From a virus (Duplodnaviria; Heunggongvirae; Uroviricota; Caudoviricetes), in IMG/VR virus record IMGVR_UViG_2737471853_000007, positions 1 through 17,015 of that record: a DNA stretch of 17,015 bases; one strand, 5' to 3'. Position numbers and translations under genes: made by a program. Positions 122-17,015 of this stretch are shown here, in pieces (the first letter of the stretch is position 1; each line of letters starts with the position of its first letter). Below the pieces are notes generated by a model. That model saw nothing but the letters and a program-made list of their open reading frames with translations. It searched no databases and was not told where the DNA came from.

Positions 122-760
122 TTGTTTCGAGTATTTATTATGATTGACTTCTTAAACCACATATTGCCTATATTATCTGCTATTGCATTCCCTATAGTTG
201 TGGTAGTAGTAACTCTTTATATAGTCTACAGAAGCGGAAGTACATCCATCATTGCTAATAAGATATGGGGGATATTCATTGGTGAGAAAAATTTCTTCAA
301 TGAAGAATTAGCATTAAAAGAAAAGGTTGAACATGATGTTGCTAAATTCAACTTTAAAGTAAATCTGAAAACCAGGAATCTCACTCAAATTGAACAATTT
401 TATAAATTTCTGGAAAAATTCGATCTGGATATAGATAACTTCAAAGGACTTCGTGACTGCTACTTGCCATCATTGCAGAAGGTCAAAAAAACATCTAAAA
501 GTGAAATATTTAATATTGGCCTGGTTGTCTTGTTAATAGGCGGTTTTTTGTTACCTATCTTCATTGGCGTGTTTATATTTAGAGACATTTCTACTTTCGA
601 CGGAGGGAAATTAGCAAATCTATTCTTTTATACGTTTTTGATTTCTGCCAGTACAGTTTTAAGTTTTAGTCAGTTACTTAGAAAGATTAAGTCAATCAGA
701 ACCCGTAAATTGATCTATAAAAAGAAATGCGAATATCTTGCAAACAGAAAGCCCATGTAG
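122..760 (+). CDS. Hypothetical membrane protein, about 3 predicted TM helices; candidate moron
   Basis: 212-aa ORF with hydrophobic stretches (ILPILSAIAFPIVVVVVTLYIVY; IGLVVLLIGGFLLPIFIGVFIF; LFFYTFLISASTVLSF) and a basic C-terminus. The track start is TTG at 122 with no clear SD; an in-frame ATG at 140 (MIDFLNH...) is an alternative start. Opposite strand to the structural operon and convergent on the tape measure gene. No recognisable family motif. Confidence 0.45.
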   Translation: MFRVFIMIDFLNHILPILSAIAFPIVVVVVTLYIVYRSGSTSIIANKIWGIFIGEKNFFNEELALKEKVEHDVAKFNFKVNLKTRNLTQIEQFYKFLEKFDLDIDNFKGLRDCYLPSLQKVKKTSKSEIFNIGLVVLLIGGFLLPIFIGVFIFRDISTFDGGKLANLFFYTFLISASTVLSFSQLLRKIKSIRTRKLIYKKKCEYLANRKPM

Positions 761-768
761 GGCTTTCT
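746..768. terminator. Putative bidirectional hairpin between convergent genes
   Basis: Perfect 9-bp inverted repeat AGAAAGCCC (746-754) / GGGCTTTCT (760-768) with a 5-nt loop, overlapping the stop of the + ORF and abutting the tape measure stop codon at 768-770. T-rich flank on the minus-strand side (TTTCTGTTTG). Confidence 0.45.
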
Positions 769-2978
769 TAAGTATTACGTCTCTGACTGCTTCTTACTGC
801 TTGTGTAACGCTGTTAGCATGCTTCTTCAACATTTCATTGAATTTCTTATCATCACCTGCAACGTCACCCTGAATGATTAAGGGAGCGTTAACGGTGATG
901 TCACCAGCAGTACTACCGCCTTTGTCCTGAGTATCGAGAAACTTAGTCAGCTTCTTGTTAGCTTCTGGCTGGACGACACGCTCACCGGCTTTCAGTACGA
1001 ATGATTTGTTATCGTACCCGGCAGGTAGCTCATCGACACCGCCGTGGAACTGCCCCGCATCAGCACCTTTTGCAGTACTGATAATGCTCAATCCAAGAGA
1101 GGCTACCTGTGCATAGTTCGCAAGGTTTTGAGGCCACGGCGTAGCAAGTGCCTGTGCAAGTGCGGATTGAATGCTTAGTACTGTCTGAGCTATCGTGATC
1201 CCACGTGAAACCATGAATGCCGCTTCGGCTGCACCCGACGATTCACCAAATGCGGCCACCATCGCCCCACTAAGGTTTTGTGCAGTATCTGAGAAGATTG
1301 TGAGTTGTTGCTGTGCATTCTGGTTACTGATATCAATGGCCTGAGCATTGTACTTTGCTGTTATCTGAGCCTTACGCTTTTCGTAGTCTTCATGACCTTT
1401 CAACAGTAAATCATTCTGTGCTAATTCAGCATTCATCGCGTCCTGATTATCATTCAGGCGTTGATCAGTATCATCATAAGCAAATGGATTACCACCATTG
1501 ATACGCTGATTTTGCTGTTGTGATAAGTACCCTTTCTGCTGATCATTTAGCAATCCAGAACTGATTAGAGAATTAGTATCTTTAAGACCTTGATTTGGAT
1601 CTGAATAGCCGACCATAGAATTAATTAGATCAGTACGTTGTTTAGCACCGGAAGTATTCGCATTCTTTAGCATTTCATCAGGATTAATACCGAGTACTTT
1701 AGCTGAATCAGTAATCGTTTTTAAAAGTGCCTTTTGCTGTCTGTCAAACTGCTGTAGGCGTACTTTAAAACCATCTTCCCCAACCTGAGCAAGAGCAGTT
1801 TCTAAATTACGTTGAGCCTGTAGCCGTTTTGCATCTGCCTGCTTTTGAGCTTGTTCTGCTTGCTTGTGTAACTGATCGGCTTTCTTCTGTGCATCTTCAC
1901 GCTGTTTGCCCTGATCTACCCAACCACCTTTAGGGGCTGTCACTGTAGCAATATCATTCTGAAAGTTGCTCACCAGACCTTCAAGATTCTTTTTAGCGTC
2001 GGCGTACTGGTTCCCCTTGCCGTTATCCATCGAGCCAGTATGAAGGGCTGCACCTTGATAGTTTAACGCCCCCGCCATGCGTAGCTTCTCCCAGATATCT
2101 AACATATCCTGTAGACTACCTTTGGATTCCTTTATACGTTGGTTAAGATCCTCAAATAATCCCGCCTCATGTGGCTTTTGATTGGCGGCATCATATACAC
2201 TGTTCATTGCATCAACTAAAGGTGAAAGGCCATCGGCGATAGTACCTTTAATATTAGTGGTTAGCTTAGTTAGATTCTTATCAAATTCCGCGTACTTTTC
2301 GGCTGCTTCATTAGTAACATCGGCGTTCTGTTGCTGGATATATGCAGTTGCATCTGCTTCATTATTGAACTGCTGTAAAGTACTAATCATATGAGATGAA
2401 TCACTTGCTAATGTTTCCATTACGTTGACAATTTCACCCTGAGATTTACCCGCATCACGCATAGCATAAAACGTATGAATAACGGCTTTCATACCGCCAT
2501 CAGTTTGTTTCAAGTACTTGTTATAGTCCTGTAGATTCAGGCCAAACTCTTTTAAATCATCAGACACGCCACCGCCAGCACGAAAGGCATCACCGAGTTT
2601 ATCTAAAGTATCCTTGTTAAAGTCTCCAAACTTATCCATTTCAAGACCAAGACCACTAAACGCCGATGATAGCTGTTGTAGCTGTACTACTGATAGACCA
2701 GTACTTTTACTGATTTCATTCATCTCGCGAACATACTCACGTGAAGACTGTACCAGTGCAGCAAGTCCACCAATACCAATAGCCGCAGCACCTGCAAGGC
2801 CAGTCATAGCAGTACTGAATCCGCCAGCCATCCCACTAAAGCGGCCTGTGAACTCTTCAACTACACCGCCAGCCTTACCACCAAATTCTTCTACTGCTTC
2901 AGTACCTTGCTGTAAAGCCCGCTGTAAGCCACCGGAATCACCGTCAATTTCTACACGGATTACATTATTCTTTGCCAT
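768..2978 (-). CDS. Phage tail tape measure protein
   Basis: 736-aa ORF directly downstream of the G/GT chaperone pair. Gly/Ala-rich hydrophobic N-terminal region (MAGGFSTAMTGLAGAAAIGIGGLAALV), long Q/A/K-rich low-complexity helical middle (QKKADQLHKQAEQAQKQADAKRLQAQRNLE), typical tape-measure composition and operon position. Confidence 0.8.
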   Translation of the reverse strand: MAKNNVIRVEIDGDSGGLQRALQQGTEAVEEFGGKAGGVVEEFTGRFSGMAGGFSTAMTGLAGAAAIGIGGLAALVQSSREYVREMNEISKSTGLSVVQLQQLSSAFSGLGLEMDKFGDFNKDTLDKLGDAFRAGGGVSDDLKEFGLNLQDYNKYLKQTDGGMKAVIHTFYAMRDAGKSQGEIVNVMETLASDSSHMISTLQQFNNEADATAYIQQQNADVTNEAAEKYAEFDKNLTKLTTNIKGTIADGLSPLVDAMNSVYDAANQKPHEAGLFEDLNQRIKESKGSLQDMLDIWEKLRMAGALNYQGAALHTGSMDNGKGNQYADAKKNLEGLVSNFQNDIATVTAPKGGWVDQGKQREDAQKKADQLHKQAEQAQKQADAKRLQAQRNLETALAQVGEDGFKVRLQQFDRQQKALLKTITDSAKVLGINPDEMLKNANTSGAKQRTDLINSMVGYSDPNQGLKDTNSLISSGLLNDQQKGYLSQQQNQRINGGNPFAYDDTDQRLNDNQDAMNAELAQNDLLLKGHEDYEKRKAQITAKYNAQAIDISNQNAQQQLTIFSDTAQNLSGAMVAAFGESSGAAEAAFMVSRGITIAQTVLSIQSALAQALATPWPQNLANYAQVASLGLSIISTAKGADAGQFHGGVDELPAGYDNKSFVLKAGERVVQPEANKKLTKFLDTQDKGGSTAGDITVNAPLIIQGDVAGDDKKFNEMLKKHANSVTQAVRSSQRRNT

Positions 2979-3674
2979 TCTTTTTCTTCCCTAAAACTTG
3001 AGTCTTAATTAACTCTCCTATTGATTTAATATCACTAGATTGTTTATCTTTTGATTTCTCTTTCCGTTCCTGTTCTTTTTCAGCAGTAGTTTTAGTACTG
3101 TCACCGAGTACATCCAGAAAATCAAAATCTTGTACTTTGATACTTTTCCTTGCTTCTGGTGTTATGTTCCCATTACTGATAGTAGTGTAATAACACTGGT
3201 ACGCATGTTTCATCATTTCAATCTGAGTACCGGATGGTTCAATAAAAGCATCGTAAATCATTAGCATATTGAGTACTTCAGGATCTAAGCTAAAGTACTC
3301 TTCTGGTGATAAGCCTCTTTTGTTAACCATCTTACAAAAGTACTTTAATTCGATATCACCCCTTACTTTTTTTCTACTTCATCCGTAGGATTTGAATCAT
3401 TTACGAGTTTGATAATTGCCGCGTATATTTCATTTTGAATGACAAAATCAATACTGTTTACATTAATGCGTCCATCAATATCTTCATCTGAAAAGATAGG
3501 ATCACCATTTTCATCTTTCGCACATAAGATTAGTGTTTGTGCAACATCAGTACATTTTGCAAAGTCTCTGCCATTTGGACGATGAATATAGATAGTTTCA
3601 CCTGCTACTTCGTAGGGTTGTAGTACTGGCTGTAGTTTCTTCATAAGCTGGTTTAAGTTCATTTGTTTCTCCAA
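2965..3674 (-). CDS. Tail assembly chaperone GT-like fusion product made by programmed -1 ribosomal frameshift (shift site at 3366-3372)
   Basis: The minus-strand mRNA at the end of the G ORF reads GAA AAA AAG TAA. The heptamer A AAA AAG (plus coordinates 3366-3372) is a classic -1 slippery site. The -1 frame is open from 3378 through the 121-aa ORF 2965-3330 (KK-VRGDIELKYFCK-MVNKRGLS...), which ends 14 bp inside the tape measure gene. Predicted fusion is about 236 aa. Confidence 0.7.
3363..3674 (-). CDS. Tail assembly chaperone (lambda gpG-like), zero-frame product
   Basis: 103-aa acidic ORF between the major tail protein and tape measure genes, ending in the slippery heptamer. Position and size match the conserved G/GT chaperone arrangement of long-tailed phages. 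Confidence 0.7.
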   Translation of the reverse strand: MEKQMNLNQLMKKLQPVLQPYEVAGETIYIHRPNGRDFAKCTDVAQTLILCAKDENGDPIFSDEDIDGRINVNSIDFVIQNEIYAAIIKLVNDSNPTDEVEKK

Positions 3675-3678
3675 TAAA

Positions 3679-3714
3679 AAAGGGAAAGTACAATACCTTC
3701 CCTTTATTTATTTT
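3679..3714 (-). terminator. Putative rho-independent terminator or attenuator downstream of the major tail protein gene
   Basis: Inverted repeat AAAGGGAA (3679-3686) / TTCCCTTT (3698-3705). On the minus-strand transcript the stem is followed by a U-run (TTTTTT then ATTGG). Lies in the 40-bp gap between the tail protein stop (3715) and the chaperone start (3674). Confidence 0.5.
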
Positions 3715-4179
3715 TTACTCACCAGTACCCGTAGTGATTAGACCTGAATCGATAGCAGCCCCATCTACAGCAAGTGTAAATGTCTTAGTTACTACTTCGT
3801 CTTTGTCACCACCGATAGTAGTACTTGAGACAAAGCACGTATAAACCACATAGAATCCGTTCTCTTTAGTAGCATCTTCAAAATAGCTTAGTTTGATTTG
3901 GCAACGCTTTTGATCATCTGCCAGTTGTTCTAATTTTTGGTGTACTGTGTTATCTGCAAGATAGTTAACCGCAAGTGAAATGTCAGGGATAGATTTAGTA
4001 CCCAATAGTTTACGGTCATATGCTGAGTTAAATGTTTTAACACTAATTACAGTACTTTCAAAACCAGAAGTAGTGAAGGTATTCACCTCTGGTACTTCTG
4101 CAAAATCAGTAGCAACGGTAGAACCCGCAGAACCTACCTCTACAGTAATATTAGCACCAGAAAAAATATCCATAGCCAT
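3715..4179 (-). CDS. Major tail (tube) protein, short form
   Basis: 154-aa ORF immediately upstream of the terminator and G/GT chaperones, the canonical position of the major tail protein. Strong SD (TATAAGGATATAAAAACT-ATG). Paralogous to the N-terminal 140 aa of the 946-aa ORF (shared MA(M)DIFSG and GDKD(E/Q)VVTK(T/S) motifs). Confidence 0.6.
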   Translation of the reverse strand: MAMDIFSGANITVEVGSAGSTVATDFAEVPEVNTFTTSGFESTVISVKTFNSAYDRKLLGTKSIPDISLAVNYLADNTVHQKLEQLADDQKRCQIKLSYFEDATKENGFYVVYTCFVSSTTIGGDKDEVVTKTFTLAVDGAAIDSGLITTGTGE

Positions 4180-4235
4180 AGTTTTTATATCCTTATATAA
4201 GTTTAATCGGGCAACGTCCTGTCACCCTTTTATAT

Positions 4236-7076
4236 TTATTTATTATCGATTAGTGATTGTACTAATACTTTCAAGTTTTCAATTTCAGTACTGAGATCAT
4301 CATTCATCTGTTTTAATGCTTTAATTGCGGCTAAACCATCTAACATCATTGGTGTTTCATCAAGATGGTACAGATCACCAACTTCTTTTACGTATTGTGG
4401 ATCTATATCCATAATCTGTTGTGAAACTACTCCACGGCGTGGTGTCTCGTCTTCATCAGATTTAAAAGTAAAGTTAACAAAGTCCATCCGAGAAATATTA
4501 TCAAGTGCAATATTGAGATCTAATGGTTCACCAATATCTTTGGCCCTTTCATCAGAGACAGCAGATGTAGTCAACTGTGCCCATGTTCCCCACGCCATAG
4601 CATTGGTTTGAACACGTGTATATATGCGATTGCTGGTGTCATAGAATCGCTGCTGATACCACTGGTTAGTAGTACCTGTGCCATTATAGTTCCCAGTGTT
4701 TAACCCTTGAGTTGCCTGAGTGAACAAAGACCCATATACGTTCGCAGCAGCACTCCCCGAAGGTGAGTTAGTCCATGAACCACCAACGGCACGCCATCCT
4801 TGAGCACCTATATTCATATCCGAACCGGAAGAATCGTATGATGTGCCATTAGGGGCAAGTCCTCCAGCAAGGCCAATGGGAGAACCATAGCCCGAAATTG
4901 GCGGTAGATATGCCCAACCCTGTCCAGTGACTGACCCAATCTTATCTCTGAAATAGAAAATAAGTCCCTTACCGGCTTCCTGGCTATTTTCAATTCTTAC
5001 CCGGCGACCTACCACATCATCACCACCACTAACATCTAAGTTGATTGCGGGCCAATCATCCCGCGATACCGTGAGTTGATTGCTGATCACTTGAGGTTGA
5101 TTGAACGTATTTGACCTGTCCAATGTCGGTACTTCATGCCACTGCCATTTACCACTGTTCAGTGATGGTTGTACGCCTCCAGCAAAGACACGATTACCAT
5201 CAGGCTGAACAAGCATTCCAGAATAAGACGGTGAACCATCATACTGTGATACAAAACCAGCACCGCCGAATGATGGAGGGGAATCAATAGTTGCTGTAGT
5301 CGTTCGAATGAACCCTTTCGGTGCATCCTTCATATCGGCAACATGGCGAGGATCTATTCCAAGCCCAACTTCTGATAGCGTCCTGTCAATTGAGTAAATT
5401 TGCTGTCCGTTCAACGTTGCTGCACTGGCTACTATTCCCAAAGTACCTTTGCCTGTTGCTGTTTCGCCACCCGATGCAAACAGACGTACATCAAAATCGT
5501 TACCAGTACCGGAACTATGCATATCAAGGAATGTCAGTACTGCCGTAGTACTACTACCCAGCTCAATACCCCTTGAAGTGGTTGAGTTGCTTCCAATAGC
5601 AATAGATCCGTTGAAGTTCTGCCCCCCATCCCATGTATTGGTAGCGTTGAGCAAAGGTACAGTACCGCCAGATGTACCAACGTTTACCGTCGCAGCCGTA
5701 CCAAGTCCAAGATTCGTTCTTGCCGCCGCAGCCGTGGTCGCTCCAGTACCGCCACTCGTTAGGGGTAATGCAGTAGAAAGGGTTAAGGTCGATAACGTCG
5801 CCTGACCGCCTGTGATAGCGACTGCGTTAGAGTTCTGCACCGCAAGGGAACCTAAACCGAGATTAGTACGGGAAGTGACAATATTATTAAGGTCTGCAAG
5901 ATTACTTGCGATCTTTAGCTGTGCGTCATTAGTAACGTTAGATAAACCAACATCGGCTTTAGTTACTGTCACATTGGATGATAATGCATGACCGTTTACT
6001 GTGATTGTTTTAGGAACCAAATCTGTATTAACATGAGTAGTTAATGTATTAATTGAATTATTAACCTCATCAATATCGCTATCAATTTGTTCTTTCGAAT
6101 ACACATCCAGATTAGTACGGGCAATTTCATTATCAGCGATATCGGCTAAATTACTGATAACTTTTAACTGAGCATCATTAGTGACATTTTCTAATTGAAT
6201 ATCTTGTTTTGTAAGTACTACATCGCTTGAAAGCTCATGACCATTAACGGTACGCTCGACGGGTACAGAACCGGTGTCAGTACTGGTTAATGTAATGTCT
6301 GCTGTTAGTGCTTTACCGTTGACGGTTCGCGTGAGAGGAACATAACGTGCGTCCATCTGTGTAGCCGTGTAGATACGAGTCCATGCCGTGGTGGCATTTT
6401 TTGCGAATAGGCTTAGTGTGCCTGTTTTTGTCATCGCAAATTCAGCAACGCTCGAACCGTCGACAAGCCCTATGCCCATCATATCGGCCCCAGCAGGATT
6501 ACCCTGTTGTGTTGACGGTATTTTGATAAAGCTGTTACCCGTTGGTGTGACTGGTGCGTACTGCGGTATACCAGTAGTGTTAGCACCTACGCCGTAATCC
6601 CCCTGATAGACAGGAAGAAGTGCAGCCATTGTCATTACACGGGCAACTACATCAGCAGGTGTAAAAGAATAGGATTTAGTAACTACCTGATCCTTATCCC
6701 CGGATAATTGAGTACCCGTAACGTAACCATTGACGATGGCATAAGTGATCTGACTTTCTTCTAAATCTAATTGATACTGAATAATGACCTGAAATACAGA
6801 TTGTGATTCAGCCATTTCATCTAAGAATTGGTGCGTAGGATCATCAGGTAAGTATGCAACCACAATATCAAATGGTTCTACTGATTTATCAGATAGTAGT
6901 ACTGTCTTGTACTCATTATCATAGGTTTCAAAATTATTTGTTTCTGACTGGATGGTTAGAGCAGGAAATTCAGTTACATTATTAATAGTAACATTGCCTA
7001 TGCCCTGTGGTGAACGGTTTCCAGTGTCCGTATTATATTGTAAAGTTAATCCCTTACCTGAAAAAATGTCGGCCAT
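4236..7076 (-). CDS. Tail fiber-like protein: N-terminal major-tail-protein-like domain, tandem fiber repeats, C-terminal intramolecular chaperone (peptidase S74-like) domain
   Basis: 946-aa ORF. Residues 1-140 are homologous to the 154-aa tail protein. The middle has tandem repeats (ERTVNGHELSSDVVLTKQDIQLENVTNDAQLKVISNLAD / TITVNGHALSSNVTVTKADVGLSNVTNDAQLKIASNLAD; RTNLGLG twice) and Gly/Ser/Thr-rich fiber-like sequence. The C-terminus (SAVSDERAKDIGEPLDLNIALDNISRMDFVNFTFKS...) matches the Ser-x4-Lys autoproteolytic chaperone module of tail fibers and endosialidases, followed by a coiled-coil tail. Confidence 0.8.
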   Translation of the reverse strand: MADIFSGKGLTLQYNTDTGNRSPQGIGNVTINNVTEFPALTIQSETNNFETYDNEYKTVLLSDKSVEPFDIVVAYLPDDPTHQFLDEMAESQSVFQVIIQYQLDLEESQITYAIVNGYVTGTQLSGDKDQVVTKSYSFTPADVVARVMTMAALLPVYQGDYGVGANTTGIPQYAPVTPTGNSFIKIPSTQQGNPAGADMMGIGLVDGSSVAEFAMTKTGTLSLFAKNATTAWTRIYTATQMDARYVPLTRTVNGKALTADITLTSTDTGSVPVERTVNGHELSSDVVLTKQDIQLENVTNDAQLKVISNLADIADNEIARTNLDVYSKEQIDSDIDEVNNSINTLTTHVNTDLVPKTITVNGHALSSNVTVTKADVGLSNVTNDAQLKIASNLADLNNIVTSRTNLGLGSLAVQNSNAVAITGGQATLSTLTLSTALPLTSGGTGATTAAAARTNLGLGTAATVNVGTSGGTVPLLNATNTWDGGQNFNGSIAIGSNSTTSRGIELGSSTTAVLTFLDMHSSGTGNDFDVRLFASGGETATGKGTLGIVASAATLNGQQIYSIDRTLSEVGLGIDPRHVADMKDAPKGFIRTTTATIDSPPSFGGAGFVSQYDGSPSYSGMLVQPDGNRVFAGGVQPSLNSGKWQWHEVPTLDRSNTFNQPQVISNQLTVSRDDWPAINLDVSGGDDVVGRRVRIENSQEAGKGLIFYFRDKIGSVTGQGWAYLPPISGYGSPIGLAGGLAPNGTSYDSSGSDMNIGAQGWRAVGGSWTNSPSGSAAANVYGSLFTQATQGLNTGNYNGTGTTNQWYQQRFYDTSNRIYTRVQTNAMAWGTWAQLTTSAVSDERAKDIGEPLDLNIALDNISRMDFVNFTFKSDEDETPRRGVVSQQIMDIDPQYVKEVGDLYHLDETPMMLDGLAAIKALKQMNDDLSTEIENLKVLVQSLIDNK
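5847..6335 (-). repeat. Intragenic tandem repeats (TVNG(K/H) fiber repeats) inside the tail fiber gene
   Basis: Three diverged copies are visible at DNA and protein level: the RTVNGKAL copy near 6314-6336, the ERTVNGHEL copy near 6241-6261 and the TITVNGHAL copy near 5991-6012. Each of the last two is followed by an NVTNDAQLK(V/I) block, and the region ends with RTNLGLGS at 5847-5870. Confidence 0.55.
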
Positions 7077-7093
7077 TTTATATCCTTATAGCG

Positions 7094-7486
7094 TTATCTT
7101 GTTTTCTCCGTAACTTGAATATTTATCGTGAATGATAAAGAAACCGAGCCAGTTATAGGGTCTGTTACGATATCGGATTGTTCATATGAGTAAGAGAGAA
7201 TGATTAAATCAGCATCCTTGAAAGCACGTGCTTTCTCATTATCAAAAGTACTGATAATCTGATCATAAGTAATTGACGGTGCAGTATTACCTGATTCTGG
7301 TTTTGGACTAATCAAGTACTGAATAGCAAAGTTACCTGCTTGTCTCTGCCCTCCAAAAGAAATTGAAGACAATGAGTAATCAAATGCTATCTGTTCAAAT
7401 ACATCTGCATCACGTGATACTGTTAGATTCTTAGTTGCGTTGATTAGTTGTTTCATTGTCTGGCGTACTTTCTGTACTAACATCAT
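7094..7486 (-). CDS. Hypothetical phage neck / tail-completion protein (position-based)
   Basis: The track ORF starts at 7564 and overlaps the upstream gene by 77 bp. An in-frame ATG-ATG at 7481-7486 lies 1 nt after the upstream stop (TAA at 7488-7490), giving a coupled about 130-aa product (MMLVQKVRQTMKQ...). No family motif recognised; the role is inferred only from its position between capsid and tail genes. Confidence 0.45.
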   Translation of the reverse strand: MMLVQKVRQTMKQLINATKNLTVSRDADVFEQIAFDYSLSSISFGGQRQAGNFAIQYLISPKPESGNTAPSITYDQIISTFDNEKARAFKDADLIILSYSYEQSDIVTDPITGSVSLSFTINIQVTEKTR

Positions 7487-7487
7487 A

Positions 7488-7811
7488 TTAGTAGTCCTCT
7501 GCAAATGAAGCACCAGCAGAAGTACGAAAGTAGCAATTAACCATACCTGACAGATCATCTTCAATATTATAAATTGTTTGGTTTACACCATCGATGATCA
7601 GTACTGTACCGATATCTATATCAGTATTAACTAAATCATCCTTTCTCATTGTTACGTATGTTTCTGTACTTTCGATAAATCCACCTGCCGCTTCAATAGA
7701 AACGGGAAGTACTTCTACAATTCCAGTAAAAGTACTTCCCGTAGAAGTTTGGATTAATTGACCGAAAGCATTTAGAAACGTATCTTGTTGACCGTTAGAA
7801 AATGCTCTCAT
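7488..7811 (-). CDS. Hypothetical head-tail connector / head completion protein (position-based)
   Basis: 107-aa ORF immediately downstream of the capsid gene (stop 7817, start 7811), tightly packed in the operon. No recognisable motif. Confidence 0.45.
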   Translation of the reverse strand: MRAFSNGQQDTFLNAFGQLIQTSTGSTFTGIVEVLPVSIEAAGGFIESTETYVTMRKDDLVNTDIDIGTVLIIDGVNQTIYNIEDDLSGMVNCYFRTSAGASFAEDY

Positions 7812-7816
7812 AGTTA

Positions 7817-11638
<3,822 letters not shown>

Positions 11639-11641
11639 TTA

Positions 11642-14009
<2,368 letters not shown>

Positions 14010-14023
14010 TTATTGAGATCACT

Positions 14024-14587
14024 ATGTCAGACCGCAACAATGATTTTTCTTTGCTGGTAAAGTTACTGAATAGCTTCCTAAAGAATGAAGATATAAAGAG
14101 GCGTCTGTATTCCTTCGTCAGTAATGAAACTAATGATTGGGAAAAATGGCTACAAATTGAATTTGAGCACTTCCTTAACAAAAAAAGAAAATATGAAGTT
14201 AAACGTGAAGTTACAGCTTTTCTTGACCCTAATAATTTCCCTGCAAGCAAGCTCTCAAAAATCGATATAATAATGAGAGAAAAAGATACCCTTTTTGAAG
14301 ACTATATCTTTATTGAGCTGAAATGTACTAAGCGTTCATCTGCCTTAAAAAGAGGATTGCAAGCAGACCATTTGAAACTCAACTCTATACAAGAATGTAA
14401 GTATCCGATGCGAAATTCTTTCTGTGTTGGTTTTCATTTATATTGCTCATCATCTGTAGTTGAAGAAATGGACAAGTATGTAACCGATACCCTTAAAGGA
14501 TCTTATGCAGTATTCAAATTATGCGAATGTCCGACAAACCGTCATTGCGATTGTGCGTTAAATGAAATAGGTGTTGTACTTTGCTAA
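14024..14587 (+). CDS. Hypothetical small protein with PD-(D/E)xK-like nuclease motif and C-terminal Cys cluster
   Basis: 187-aa ORF divergent from terS with only 38 bp between start codons. Candidate catalytic motif E (QIEFEH) ... D (SKIDIIM) ... ExK (IFIELKC) with restriction-endonuclease-like spacing. C-terminal CxC...HCDC cluster. No AGTACT hexamer, unlike the phage operon. Confidence 0.5.
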   Translation: MSDRNNDFSLLVKLLNSFLKNEDIKRRLYSFVSNETNDWEKWLQIEFEHFLNKKRKYEVKREVTAFLDPNNFPASKLSKIDIIMREKDTLFEDYIFIELKCTKRSSALKRGLQADHLKLNSIQECKYPMRNSFCVGFHLYCSSSVVEEMDKYVTDTLKGSYAVFKLCECPTNRHCDCALNEIGVVLC

Positions 14588-14676
14588 GTGCGGTGCGGGA
14601 AGCTATCTAAACTTCACACATAACTTAAAGAATCCGGTGCCGAAAACTCGCGTTCTAAGCTGGGCTGCCGGAGTAC

Positions 14677-14760
14677 CTTAATTAGTAATTTAACTTAATT
14701 AGCTTGCTTAAAAATACTTACATTCTATTTTACATTAGCATTATTACAATGTTATATTAA
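14677..14760 (+). promoter_or_regulatory. Putative promoter/operator region upstream of the DUF3800 gene
   Basis: 9-bp direct repeat CTTAATTAG at 14677-14685 and 14693-14701, immediately upstream of a -35-like TTGCTT (14704-14709) and a -10-like TATTTT about 16 bp downstream. The AT-rich context makes the exact promoter assignment uncertain. Confidence 0.3.
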
Positions 14761-14766
14761 TAGCAC

Positions 14767-15921
14767 ATGCACATTGTAGCTCATAAAGGAATGACCAAAT
14801 TGGTAAAGAATGTATATTTCGATGAATCAGGATTCACTGGTAATAACTTACTTTCAAAAGATCAGCCTTTTTTTAGTTACGCAGCAGTCGTGACTGATGA
14901 TGAGGAAAGTAAACAGTTTGTTGATTATATAATAAACAAGTACTCGATCGCAGCCGAAGAGCTAAAAGGTAGCACTCTCGTAAATAGCAAGAGATTTCAA
15001 CCAGCCGTAGATGAAATACTTAATCATTTCCGTGGTCGTATGCGTGTGGTTGTAAACGAAAAAAAATATGCCCTCTCAGGAAAATTCTTCGAATATATTT
15101 TTGAGCCAGTATTAGCAGCTAAAAGCTCAATTTTTTACAACCTTAAATTTCACCTATTCATCTCAAATATAATGTATTTTTCTTTAATAGCTAAGGATGA
15201 ATATTCAGAACTATTACATTCGCGATTTGAAGATTTTTCACGAGGTAAAATATTGGTTAATAGTTTTATCGAACCAGTTGTTGGTTCTAAAAATTCTGAA
15301 ATTATGATGGACATTCATGATTTCGCCAAGAATAACATCTCTATAATTGAAGAAGAATATGAAGGCCTTGAGGGTACTGGGATTGATAAGTGGTTATTAG
15401 ATTTGACAACGACTTCTCTTTATAATCTCCTGTGCGATATGAGTAGTAAGTTTGGTACATTGAGAGCTATATGCGACAGCTCAAAACCATTAATTACTCA
15501 TCAGGACTCATTCAATGAGATGATAGGCAATGATGAGATTGTGTTCGAGACTTTTCATGATAAAAAAATCCCGATCACATTTAAGCTATCTGAGCCAATG
15601 ATTCTTTCTGATTCTAAAGTCACGCATGGTATACAAATTGCGGATGTGGTAGCTGCGGCTAGCATTTATGTCCTTAACAAGAAAAAATCGAAAGAAAAAT
15701 ATCATTCTAAATGGCTAAATCATTTTGAAGATGAGATTTTTTATTGGCAGTGCTGTGTTGTTCCCACACCAGAAAACCTTGACCCTAAAAATGTTAACAA
15801 CCATTTAAATAGATATATTTTGCAAGAAATTGCAGAGCGAAGCAGAAACTCAACTCCTGTTTTAGATGATATTGAGAAGGATATAATAAGAATTTCCAGA
15901 ACATTAGCCATGCTACGTTGA
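14767..15921 (+). CDS. DUF3800-family protein (function unknown)
   Basis: 384-aa ORF with both signature motifs recalled for DUF3800: N-terminal DES (VYFDESGFTG) and C-terminal QxxD (THGIQIADVVAAA), within the family length range. The start is uncertain: the ATG at 14767 has no SD, and the alternatives are ATG at 14791 or in-frame TTG at 14800, 9 nt after AAAGGA. Confidence 0.75.
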   Translation: MHIVAHKGMTKLVKNVYFDESGFTGNNLLSKDQPFFSYAAVVTDDEESKQFVDYIINKYSIAAEELKGSTLVNSKRFQPAVDEILNHFRGRMRVVVNEKKYALSGKFFEYIFEPVLAAKSSIFYNLKFHLFISNIMYFSLIAKDEYSELLHSRFEDFSRGKILVNSFIEPVVGSKNSEIMMDIHDFAKNNISIIEEEYEGLEGTGIDKWLLDLTTTSLYNLLCDMSSKFGTLRAICDSSKPLITHQDSFNEMIGNDEIVFETFHDKKIPITFKLSEPMILSDSKVTHGIQIADVVAAASIYVLNKKKSKEKYHSKWLNHFEDEIFYWQCCVVPTPENLDPKNVNNHLNRYILQEIAERSRNSTPVLDDIEKDIIRISRTLAMLR

Positions 15922-15931
15922 AATATATATT

Positions 15932-15961
15932 CTCATGCTGTTTTATCAATAACAGCATGAG
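15932..15961. terminator. Putative bidirectional hairpin between convergent DUF3800 and lipoprotein genes
   Basis: 11-bp perfect inverted repeat CTCATGCTGTT (15932-15942) / AACAGCATGAG (15951-15961) with an 8-nt loop, 11 bp after the DUF3800 stop. Flanks are AT-rich on both sides. Confidence 0.5.
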
Positions 15962-16033
15962 GGTATTATATATTATTTAATTTTTCATCATGCCACATAC
16001 ACTTAATAATTCTATCTCTTTGATTTTTGTTTA

Positions 16034-16306
16034 TTATCTATATTGATGCATTTTTTTAATTCTTTCCTCTCGTATATGGCATGTAGTACTGCCATTGTCC
16101 ACCTGGTAAATCGGATTGTAGGTGCGGCCACAATCACTCTGGAACTGAGGCCGGTAGTACTTCACCCCGTTTCGTGTGCCAGCGTCGAACAGTACTATTG
16201 TAGCCTTGTTATCAACGTTGCCGACAAAGGCTTTATCCATGAATGAGTGATGTACGCTGCCGCAGCCTGTGAGCAGTACTACCAACATGACGATTAGTAT
16301 TTTCAT
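16034..16306 (-). CDS. Small lipoprotein (signal peptide with lipobox LTGC)
   Basis: The track ORF starts at 16342, but the internal ATG at 16306 gives MKILIVMLVVLLTGCGS..., a classic lipoprotein signal peptide with lipobox. SD AGGGA lies about 9 nt upstream, and the start is 10 bp after the upstream gene stop (TAG at 16317-16319). Mature part is about 70 aa with two further Cys. Confidence 0.6.
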   Translation of the reverse strand: MKILIVMLVVLLTGCGSVHHSFMDKAFVGNVDNKATIVLFDAGTRNGVKYYRPQFQSDCGRTYNPIYQVDNGSTTCHIREERIKKMHQYR

Positions 16307-16316
16307 TGTTATATCC

Positions 16317-16826
16317 CTATAGAAGTTGTTCGCATTGTTCAAAGCGGATTGGCCTGTACTCTCCCTGTACTGCCCATACCCCCGACTCTCGTAAAATCCT
16401 GTGATTTCGATTGCTGCTGACTTGTACGATCACCTTGTCGCAGTACTGCATGATGTTATTGATGAGTACCGGGAAGATCAGCCGCTCTATGTGTTCTTCA
16501 GTGAACCGTCTATTTAGTCGAACTAAGTCGTAACCGTCCGTTAGCAGTGGTTCAGCAGCCATGTACCGTATGAATGGTAGATCTTCATAGCGTGTACCTG
16601 TGCCAGTACTGAGCACGCACAACAGCCCCTTTTCTTTGAACCATGCGGCTTTACCCTGAATCATTCTTAACTGGTTCTGATAGACCACGTGACGGATATA
16701 TTCACTTTCTTTTCCTGCCCCCATCAGTACCTGGCAACCGTTTATCAGTACACGGGTTTCCAGCTCTACGCCGAGTAACATACCGTCCAATGAAGTGATC
16801 GGAATTGCCCAATGTTCGAGTTTCAT
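16317..16826 (-). CDS. Hypothetical protein with degenerate EAL-like (YdiV-like) features
   Basis: 169-aa ORF. LLGVELETRVL resembles the EAL signature region (E. coli YdiV: LVGVELITHF, as recalled), LSTGTGTRYEDL resembles the DDFGTGYSS region, and C-terminal VWAVQGEY resembles the QGY(LF) motif. It is shorter than a full EAL domain, so the assignment is weak. Confidence 0.35.
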   Translation of the reverse strand: MKLEHWAIPITSLDGMLLGVELETRVLINGCQVLMGAGKESEYIRHVVYQNQLRMIQGKAAWFKEKGLLCVLSTGTGTRYEDLPFIRYMAAEPLLTDGYDLVRLNRRFTEEHIERLIFPVLINNIMQYCDKVIVQVSSNRNHRILRESGVWAVQGEYRPIRFEQCEQLL

Positions 16827-16950
16827 GTTGATCTCTCAGTTGTCATAACTGATTGATAATTGATCATTTTTAACCATTGATCAAATTAAAATGATCGATA
16901 ATTACATTTCTACCGTTTTTAGTGGTAAGTATTTTGATGGCTGGATCTGT
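16827..16950 (-). promoter_or_regulatory. GATC-rich upstream region with repeated TTGATCA-like motifs
   Basis: Five GATC sites in about 120 bp (16830-16833, 16862-16865, 16879-16882, 16893-16896, 16944-16947), embedded in repeated ATTGAT(C)A motifs (GATTGATAATTGATCATTTTTAACCATTGATCAAATTAAAATGATCGATAATT) directly upstream of the start codon at 16826. Confidence 0.3.
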
Positions 16951-17015
16951 GCGAAATGTGATGCAATACTGTATGGATAACCAGTATTAATGTAGTGTAA
17001 ATAGACCCGTTTTAG

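Follow-up and report, generated by a model that had tools for sequence, protein, structure and literature searches.

A tail-fibre protein that begins with a paralog of the neighbouring tail-tube protein: a candidate virion anchor in a Caudoviricetes tail module

The locus raises the question of why a 946-amino-acid (aa) tail-fibre protein should begin with a domain resembling the phage's own major tail protein, encoded next to it, and what that domain does in the virion. In the window, by which we mean the whole 17,015-nt stretch of DNA analysed, ORF calls place every gene of the tail module on the minus strand, and the relevant features are as follows.

4236–7076, minus strand: ORF of the 946-aa fibre protein (ORF list; stop codon at 4236–4238)
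6642–7076, minus strand: tube-like domain, residues 1–145 of the 946-aa ORF (N-domain), proposed virion anchor and paralog of the major tail protein encoded alongside
6582–6641, minus strand: linker, residues 146–165, joining the tube-like domain to the shaft, with the motif LLPvYQGDYGVGsNG (two family alignments)
4557–6581, minus strand: fibre shaft and distal domains, residues 166–840, a mosaic exchanged between relatives (PHROG tail-fibre matches)
6036–6266, minus strand: fibre repeat copy 1, residues 271–347 (TVNGHxLSS...NVTNDAQLK...RTNL)
5787–6017, minus strand: fibre repeat copy 2, residues 354–430, 49% identical to copy 1
4239–4556, minus strand: S74-type intramolecular chaperone, residues 841–946, from SDERAK (Pfam PF13884, PDB sequence match, motif position)
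3715–4179, minus strand: 154-aa major tail (tube) protein, the conserved paralog (Pfam Phage_tail_3, other tail-tube families, phrog_158)
7094–7486, minus strand: 130-aa tail terminator with a predicted gpU-like fold, directly upstream of the fibre gene
7076–7090, minus strand: first copy of the 15-nt string TATAAGGATATAAAA, a Shine-Dalgarno core AAGGA with an AT-rich spacer, its last base being the A of the fibre ATG
4183–4197, minus strand: second copy of TATAAGGATATAAAA, separated by 3 nt from the ATG of the major tail protein, a site kept family-wide
3679–3705, minus strand: terminator-like hairpin with a T-run, directly after the tube gene (consensus scan only)

The hairpin is possibly an attenuator closing a strongly expressed fibre–tube segment; a promoter scan found sites no commoner than in shuffled sequence. 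The tape measure ORF translates to 736 aa, and a separate pb9-type distal tail protein is encoded downstream of the tape measure gene; in L002, a locus of the window's lineage, it has 185 aa (16974–17531).

An earlier note on this DNA had claimed homology between the start of the 946-aa ORF and the 154-aa tail protein on the strength of the peptides MADIFSG / MAMDIFSG and SGDKDQVVTKSYSF / GGDKDEVVTKTFTL, all of which are present in the ORFs. The homology holds: residues 3–138 of the long ORF align with residues 4–136 of the short one at 29% identity (BLASTP, E = 7e−17), and the family profiles of the N-domain and the tube protein match with 99.7% probability (hhalign, E = 4e−25). Both ORFs match phrog_158, 'major tail protein' (1.4e−17 for the long and 5.4e−19 for the short ORF), and the 154-aa protein exceeds the Pfam Phage_tail_3 threshold (30.2 versus 24.2 bits). 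Residues 1–165 alone gave no Pfam match even at E ≤ 10, and the whole 946-aa protein gave no NCBIfam match. Judged from sequence, the N-domain and the major tail protein next to it are true paralogs.

Structure prediction of the N-domain, a check that the earlier note had asked for, points to a tail-tube fold with moderate confidence (mean pLDDT 71.6, only 50–57 in the hairpin region); the model is a beta-sandwich flanked by a helix and bearing a long hairpin, and its nearest structures are solved tube proteins. Nearly all matches in a BFVD fold search were short tube proteins, and a sequence search of solved structures with the tube protein found none. The topology of the domain appears complete, because the two paralogs align pairwise with just 3 gap positions. 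Positions conserved in both paralog families cluster at the N-terminus (M..DIF.G), in the poorly ordered hairpin-like region (TY/F..Y..LL) and in the last strands (VVTK). Both families are strongly acidic (mean pI 4.1 and 4.5), a property in keeping with a tube-type domain, though weak as a test. The N-domain evolves more quickly than its paralog, at a mean pairwise identity of 0.58 versus 0.73 for the tube protein, and has a loop, NtDTGNrSPQG, that is conserved in its own family and missing from the tube protein; given this faster evolution and family-specific loop, its contacts cannot equal those of the tube protein.

The linker motif that follows is family-conserved, with G162 and G164 invariant in the family alignments. 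The suggestion that some 800 aa of fibre repeats come next stands in part: there is one clear repeat of ~77 aa (residues 271–347 versus 354–430, E = 1e−20), and the remainder of residues 166–840 matches assorted tail-fibre PHROG families. The S74-type chaperone proposed for the end of the ORF was recovered as Pfam Peptidase_S74 (PF13884) at residues 841–897 (E = 1.6e−8, 35.2 bits versus a cutoff of 22), and a PDB sequence search linked the C-terminal region to the MYRF chaperone domain (E = 0.0012); the fibre's other solved-structure match was one short alignment to another phage tail fibre. The motif SDERAK, which we take to be the catalytic Ser-Lys autocleavage motif of the S74 domain, begins at residue 841. 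These matches support the assignment of the 946-aa protein as a fibre with an S74 autochaperone.

The pairing of the two genes is not peculiar to the window. A search for homologous two-gene arrangements, likewise advised beforehand, found ~45 related loci reaching down to 27% identity, and every complete locus among them has the order stopper, terminator, tube-domain fibre, tube protein, chaperones, tape measure. Across related IMG/VR loci the tube protein is 64–96% identical. In ~100 of 130 protein clusters (50% identity), the domain lies at residues 1–150 of proteins of 670–1560 aa with varied distal parts; nearly all of the best 120 full-length matches share the N-domain and differ in the fibre part, and alignments of relatives with a shared N-domain span only 26–64% of the whole protein. 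Prophages with a tube-domain fibre come from Escherichia, Shigella, Enterobacter, Klebsiella, Phytobacter, Rahnella and other hosts, and the existing annotation of these fibres is merely 'tail fiber domain-containing protein'. The exact 946-aa protein is carried, for example, by the strain of assembly GCA_042763645.1 and by isolate SRR23529897. In two loci, L093 and DCP80 (L001), a second fibre protein is encoded after the tube-domain fibre, so the tube-domain protein would be the virion-proximal segment.

No further side-fibre gene was seen in the tail modules read, and no p132-like collar gene was recognised in the tail module by Pfam, PHROG or related loci. Short N-domain homologues (P0121–P0126) were considered as stand-alone second tube proteins and rejected, those inspected (P0126 and P0121) being contig-end truncations or a deletion fusion. 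Among isolated phages, the arrangement had a single matching record, DCP80, which looks like a chimeric assembly. In complete E. coli genomes, megablast matches to the whole window were confined to the terminase/DUF3800 side, except for short stretches (~75% identity) where the fibre gene encodes its C-terminal chaperone, and a more sensitive blastn search with positions 6500–7811 gave no match. The literature covered, which excludes most subscription journals, and a term search of the RBPseg fibre-atlas paper contained no description of a tube-domain–fibre fusion.

The reading towards which we lean is that the 946-aa protein is a side (lateral) tail fibre, attached by a diverged copy of the phage's own tube protein. 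The tube-like domain would most likely fix the fibre to the virion by taking an in-line place in the tube. The S74 chaperone would nucleate trimer folding and then cleave itself off near Ser841, giving a mature trimer with three tube-like domains at its N-terminal end. These domains would join the tube stack in line through the contacts of the tube protein's N-terminal arm and long hairpin, making a specialised ring or half-rings of three neighbouring subunits, and the shaft would exit where other tube proteins carry their Ig-like decorations, at the C-terminal, outward-facing end of the domain. The distal two thirds of the protein would be an exchangeable receptor-binding part. A single polypeptide would replace the T5 trio of p140 tube-paralog ring, p132 collar and pb1 fibre.

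In-line incorporation in itself we consider fairly probable, since the conserved positions shared by the paralogs include the N-terminus and the hairpin-like region; in T5, ring-to-ring contacts are made by the N-terminus and long loops of the tube protein, and fibres are anchored by a tube-paralog ring (PMC10038345). Phage Nocturne116 has a mixed hetero-hexameric ring. The preferred reading also draws on the constant N-domain joined to variable distal parts, the two-protein fibres, the constant gene order and the lack of a further side-fibre gene in the modules read. Points against it are the moderate confidence of the N-domain model, the faster evolution and private loop of the N-domain, and the two trimers that a six-chain ring would hold, an unusual number of fibres. 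Placing the N-domain at a defined tip-end position, beside the distal tail protein, is a more tentative proposal, against which stands the location of the fibre gene, which flanks the tube gene on its neck side, away from the tip genes. In a mirror-tree comparison over 24 non-redundant loci, with terminator, tube protein, chaperones, tape measure and distal tail protein as partners, the distances of the N-domain correlated with those of the tube protein at a Spearman rho of 0.72, the distal tail protein at 0.66 and the terminator at 0.62, which did not tell a tip-end from a neck-end placement.

The start sites of the two genes bear on an alternative that we regard as unlikely, in which, as in the earlier note's version with fibres along the tail, paralog and tube protein would polymerise together over its full length, or in several successive rings, with long trimeric fibres projecting throughout and a fibre-to-tube ratio set by the similar strong ribosome-binding sites of the two genes. 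As the earlier note had observed, the start contexts are nearly the same: TATAAGGATATAAAA is exact in both, where ~0.12 chance matches would be expected even with 2 mismatches allowed. Among the late-operon genes checked, a strong TAAGGA site precedes solely the fibre and tube genes, and both lie upstream of the terminator-like hairpin, two points in favour of this alternative. The copies are out of register, with the fibre ATG overlapping the last A and the tube ATG preceded by an extra ACT. In 31 related loci, the string upstream of the tube gene, ttaTATAAGGATATAAA, is conserved and the fibre gene in most retains only an AAGGA-type core; fibre–tube upstream identity of at least 14 nt is restricted to the window's lineage (L002, L051). 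The extended identity is thus lineage-specific, which argues against co-polymerisation, and the 31-locus comparison also rules out the supposition that the duplication had included the ribosome-binding site. Neutral upstream bases could not have persisted since a duplication now at 29% protein identity, and the 15-nt identity is therefore secondary, through convergence or gene conversion.

Co-polymerisation would further suit the nearly gap-free alignment of the paralogs and the surface display of C-terminal extensions of tube proteins, as in lambda gpV and SPP1 gp17.1*. Nevertheless, the known tube paralogs T5 p140 and T4 gp48/gp54 sit in single defined rings; 29% identity together with a conserved loop of its own is more divergence than co-polymerisation would seem to require; and pre-formed trimers of ~840 residues at every ring would presumably carry a steric and metabolic cost.

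We give just as little credence to a head-proximal version, matching the earlier note's fibres at the top of the tail, in which the final tube ring, just below the terminator, consists of the paralog and carries whisker-like neck fibres. Late-gene order often mirrors virion position, and in all loci the fibre gene lies between the terminator and tube genes, on the neck side; this is weak evidence, however, because tandem duplication of the tube gene puts the copy there whatever its function. Moreover, the sole side-fibre gene seen would place ~840-residue fibres at the neck, probably short of the tip where a 736-aa tape measure sets the tail, and co-variation of the N-domain with the terminator is not above that with the distal tail protein.

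Slightly less likely again is that the N-domain is not built in at all, and either binds laterally to the assembled tube, the tip complex or a chaperone, or is a little-used relic in a fibre that attaches elsewhere. Its faster evolution, its private conserved loop and its failure to match a Pfam tube family when taken alone would all be compatible with such a role, but the domain is full-length at the extreme N-terminus in ~100 clusters, the segments through which tube proteins make ring-to-ring contact are conserved in both paralog families, and a relic would not persist down to 27% identity with unchanged gene order. That the N-domain is itself a gpU-type terminator cap bearing the fibres, one version of the earlier suggestion that they stand at the top of the tail, is highly improbable: the fibre gene does sit immediately before the tube gene, the place of gene U in lambda, but the best matches of the N-domain are tube proteins, and this version is ruled out because the 130-aa neighbour with a modelled terminator fold is encoded separately at 7094–7486.

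Few phages offer atomic detail on how lateral fibres are held to a siphophage tail, and a fibre that brings its own tube subunit, kept in ~100 protein clusters, would be a candidate simple solution. If confirmed, the tube-like domain would offer a portable anchor, recognisable from sequence, for host-range engineering, and a natural case of a six-fold tube accommodating three-fold fibres; annotation of tube-domain fibres would also improve, since the N-domain matches no curated model. Should the fibre instead co-polymerise along the tail, it would be self-anchoring, with neither collar nor baseplate adaptor, on a tail studded with receptor-binding fibres, and would be widespread in prophages of enteric bacteria.

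Among known systems, the closest analogue of the proposed anchor is the p140/p132/pb1 collar of phage T5. The L-shaped T5 fibre pb1 ends in an S74-type autochaperone, a feature at the end of the 946-aa protein as well. In T5, a duplicate of the tube protein provides a special in-line ring for side-fibre attachment (PMC10038345), as the N-domain would here. The two differ in that ring, collar and fibre are three proteins in T5, where the trimer-forming p140 is deliberately decoration-free, consists of a double tube domain and has only 9% identity to pb6 (PMC10038345), whereas here the fibre is covalently joined to a single tube domain of ~145 aa with 29% identity to the tube protein, and no collar protein was identified. 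The traits of the p140 family (decoration-free double domain, trimeric pseudo-hexamer, p132 collar) are not those of this protein, which may nonetheless work like p140. According to the T5 authors, p140 and p132 are restricted to T5-like phages, and other siphophages must anchor their fibres otherwise (PMC10038345).

As in lambda gpV, SPP1 gp17.1* and T5 pb6, the extension here would leave the C-terminal end of the tube domain, outside the tail. Lambda gpV has an Ig-like domain, and SPP1 gp17.1* is made by frameshifting. T5 pb6 also bears an Ig-like domain (PMC10038345). In those phages a small monomeric domain is carried by the tube protein or by a recoded version of that protein, whereas here a separate, diverged gene would supply a trimeric fibre of ~700 residues with an autochaperone; recoding of the SPP1 type does not apply, as the two ORFs are separate and the fibre has its own start and only 29% identity to the tube protein. 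'Evolved' Hcp proteins of type VI secretion, with a C-terminal effector, belong to another machine and carry a toxin cargo, without a trimeric shaft or autochaperone. Finally, lactococcal phage p2 ORF15, T4 gp48/gp54 and Nocturne116 DTP1/DTP2 are likewise tube-fold proteins, whose single specialised rings bear or anchor the receptor-binding parts; in contrast to these distal tail and initiator paralogs, the domain described here is nearest in sequence to the tube protein, in a phage that encodes its pb9-type distal tail protein separately.

ORF calling with Pfam and PHROG matches placed the region in a minus-strand late operon, listed here in transcription order:

13437-13985, minus strand: small terminase, first in the order listed
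11642-13531, minus strand: GpA-type large terminase, after the small terminase
between the large terminase and portal genes, minus strand: head-tail joining protein, 176 aa
9591-11099, minus strand: lambda-type portal
7817-9643, minus strand: protease-capsid fusion
7488-7811, minus strand: FII-like protein (stopper), 107 aa
7094-7486, minus strand: 130-aa protein (terminator), directly preceding the 946-aa ORF
4236-7076, minus strand: 946-aa ORF, the tube-domain fibre
3715-4179, minus strand: major tail (tube) protein, 154 aa, following the 946-aa ORF
2965-3674, minus strand: two small chaperone-like genes (99/103 aa and 121 aa)
768-2978, minus strand: tape measure protein, 736 aa, last in the list

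The two chaperone-like genes lie ~30 nt apart without overlap, so a lambda G/GT-type frameshift arrangement is not evident. The tube gene is directly followed by a terminator-like hairpin and its T-run (3679-3705, minus strand), and the 107-aa gene contains, within its coding region, an inverted repeat with a 17-bp stem (7702-7742, minus strand). In longer contigs with an identical 946-aa protein, the tape measure gene is followed by genes for a distal tail protein of the pb9 type, two small proteins and a ~1070-aa tip protein; in two contigs with this protein (L002 and L003, 14099-16310) the tape measure gene, an intact 736-aa ORF in the window, is split into 639 + 107 aa. A DUF6216 membrane protein encoded on the opposite strand (122-760, plus strand), between the tape measure and distal tail protein genes, is a moron-like insertion within the tail module and is also present in related contigs.

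The earlier note had read the start of the 946-aa ORF as a paralog of the major tail protein, and this was borne out: its first 138 residues align with that protein at 29% identity (E = 7e-17, BLASTP), and alignments of the N-domain and tube-protein families match each other at 99.7% probability (E = 4e-25). Both proteins matched phrog_158, and the 154-aa protein passed the Pfam Phage_tail_3 threshold. The PDB label of Sf11 gp24 is 'neck whiskers', but its own paper identifies it as the tube protein. In 97% of locus pairs, conservation was higher for the tube protein than for the N-domain. In the Escherichia phage DCP80, the N-domain resembles the window N-domain more closely than it does either of the tube proteins, and the tube protein is nearer to the window tube protein, which argues that the tube-gene duplication is old and happened once.

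Fibre anchors on virions usually show a conserved N-terminal module joined to exchangeable distal parts. When residues 1-150 were searched exhaustively, without a profile, 130 clusters (at 50% identity) emerged; in about 100 of these, the proteins are 670-1560 residues long and have the domain at their very N-terminus. Nearly all of the best 120 full-length matches carried the N-domain at 40-100% identity, with the fibre only partly covered. The homologous two-gene arrangement was found in 39 viral contigs, three genomes and further loci, and every complete contig has the identical order of stopper, terminator, tube-domain fibre, tube protein, chaperones and tape measure, which is kept even at 27-31% identity. 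Of phage records, DCP80 (PQ671644.1) alone has this arrangement; the record, classed as Gaprivervirus, resembles a chimeric assembly, with a ~26-kb siphophage module joined to T4-like genes and rIIA present twice in opposite orientations. Among 5,426 complete E. coli genomes, long and close matching was confined to the terminase/DUF3800 side of the window (12475-16993, 97.5% identity in NZ_CP123310, broken by an IS3 element), and the structural module was not found in them even by sensitive blastn (query 6500-7811).

E. coli assemblies carry the exact 946-aa protein, named 'tail fiber domain-containing protein'. A claimed C-terminal S74 chaperone was confirmed by a Peptidase_S74 domain above threshold, starting with SDERAK at residue 841; the claim of fibre repeats stood in part, as the protein's central region has matches in several PHROG tail-fibre families but contains a single repeat of ~77 residues. 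In two lineages of distant relatives (L093, 6001-11156; L001, 8763-13136) a further fibre protein has been inserted behind the tube-domain fibre, so the tube-domain protein is the virion-proximal segment of such two-protein fibres; that of L093 has a weak T4 gp36-like match, and the S74 domain is on its second fibre protein. Four loci (L016, L017, L019, L022) encode 808-845-aa fibre variants with a ~300-nt gap between fibre stop and tube gene start; no precomputed S74 match exists for database proteins of these lengths, so a separate small gene for fibre assembly may lie in the gap. In L013/L057 (IMGVR_UViG_2698536647_000002) and the short database homologue P0121, a deletion fuses N-domain residue ~170 to the tape measure's C-terminal portion; shaft, tube gene and chaperones are all lost in L013/L057, indicating a defective prophage copy.

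A shared start context was likewise found, the 15-nt string TATAAGGATATAAAA lying upstream of both fibre and tube genes with a 4-nt offset relative to the two start codons; among the late genes checked in the window, the strong site is limited to these two. Over 31 related loci the tube-gene site is almost invariant and the fibre-gene site keeps only an AAGGA-like core, site identity of at least 14 nt occurring only in the window's own lineage. The proposal that the duplication included the ribosome-binding site therefore fails: with proteins diverged to 29% identity and the long match lineage-restricted, inheritance from the duplication is ruled out, and the sequences point to later convergence or gene conversion.

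The residues that both paralog families conserve are concentrated at the N-terminus, in the long-hairpin region and in the final strands, and both families are strongly acidic. Since ring-to-ring contacts in T5 are made by the N-terminus and long loops (PMC10038345), we propose from these shared features that the fibre is anchored by a tube subunit, in a ring within the tube. A trimeric fibre would insert its three tube-like domains into the stack of the tube, where they could make up a specialised ring or half of one; the shaft would exit at the outer C-terminal end of the tube domain. Placed near the tip, such a ring would have its parallel in T5 p140 and would suit a side fibre; no side-fibre gene besides the 946-aa ORF was seen in the tail modules read in the longer contigs. 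Gene order hints at a neck position for the ring, and the strong, matched ribosome-binding sites of the fibre and tube genes hint at a higher copy number of the fibre protein; a co-variation comparison gave no separation between the tip, neck and high-copy readings.

The closest analogue of the tube-domain fibre is the T5 collar, which is built from three proteins: p140, a duplicate of the tube protein, makes up one ring; p132, the collar protein, encircles that ring; and pb1, the fibre, is attached to the collar (PMC10038345). No collar protein was recognised in the window's tail module, and membership in the p140 family was rejected, the domain here being single rather than double and decorated rather than bare. 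Unlike frameshift or Ig-type tube decorations, the 946-aa protein is a separate, diverged gene bearing a trimeric fibre. The tube-domain fibre is a real, conserved feature, and a new form of an already known theme, that of specialised tube paralogs serving fibre attachment.
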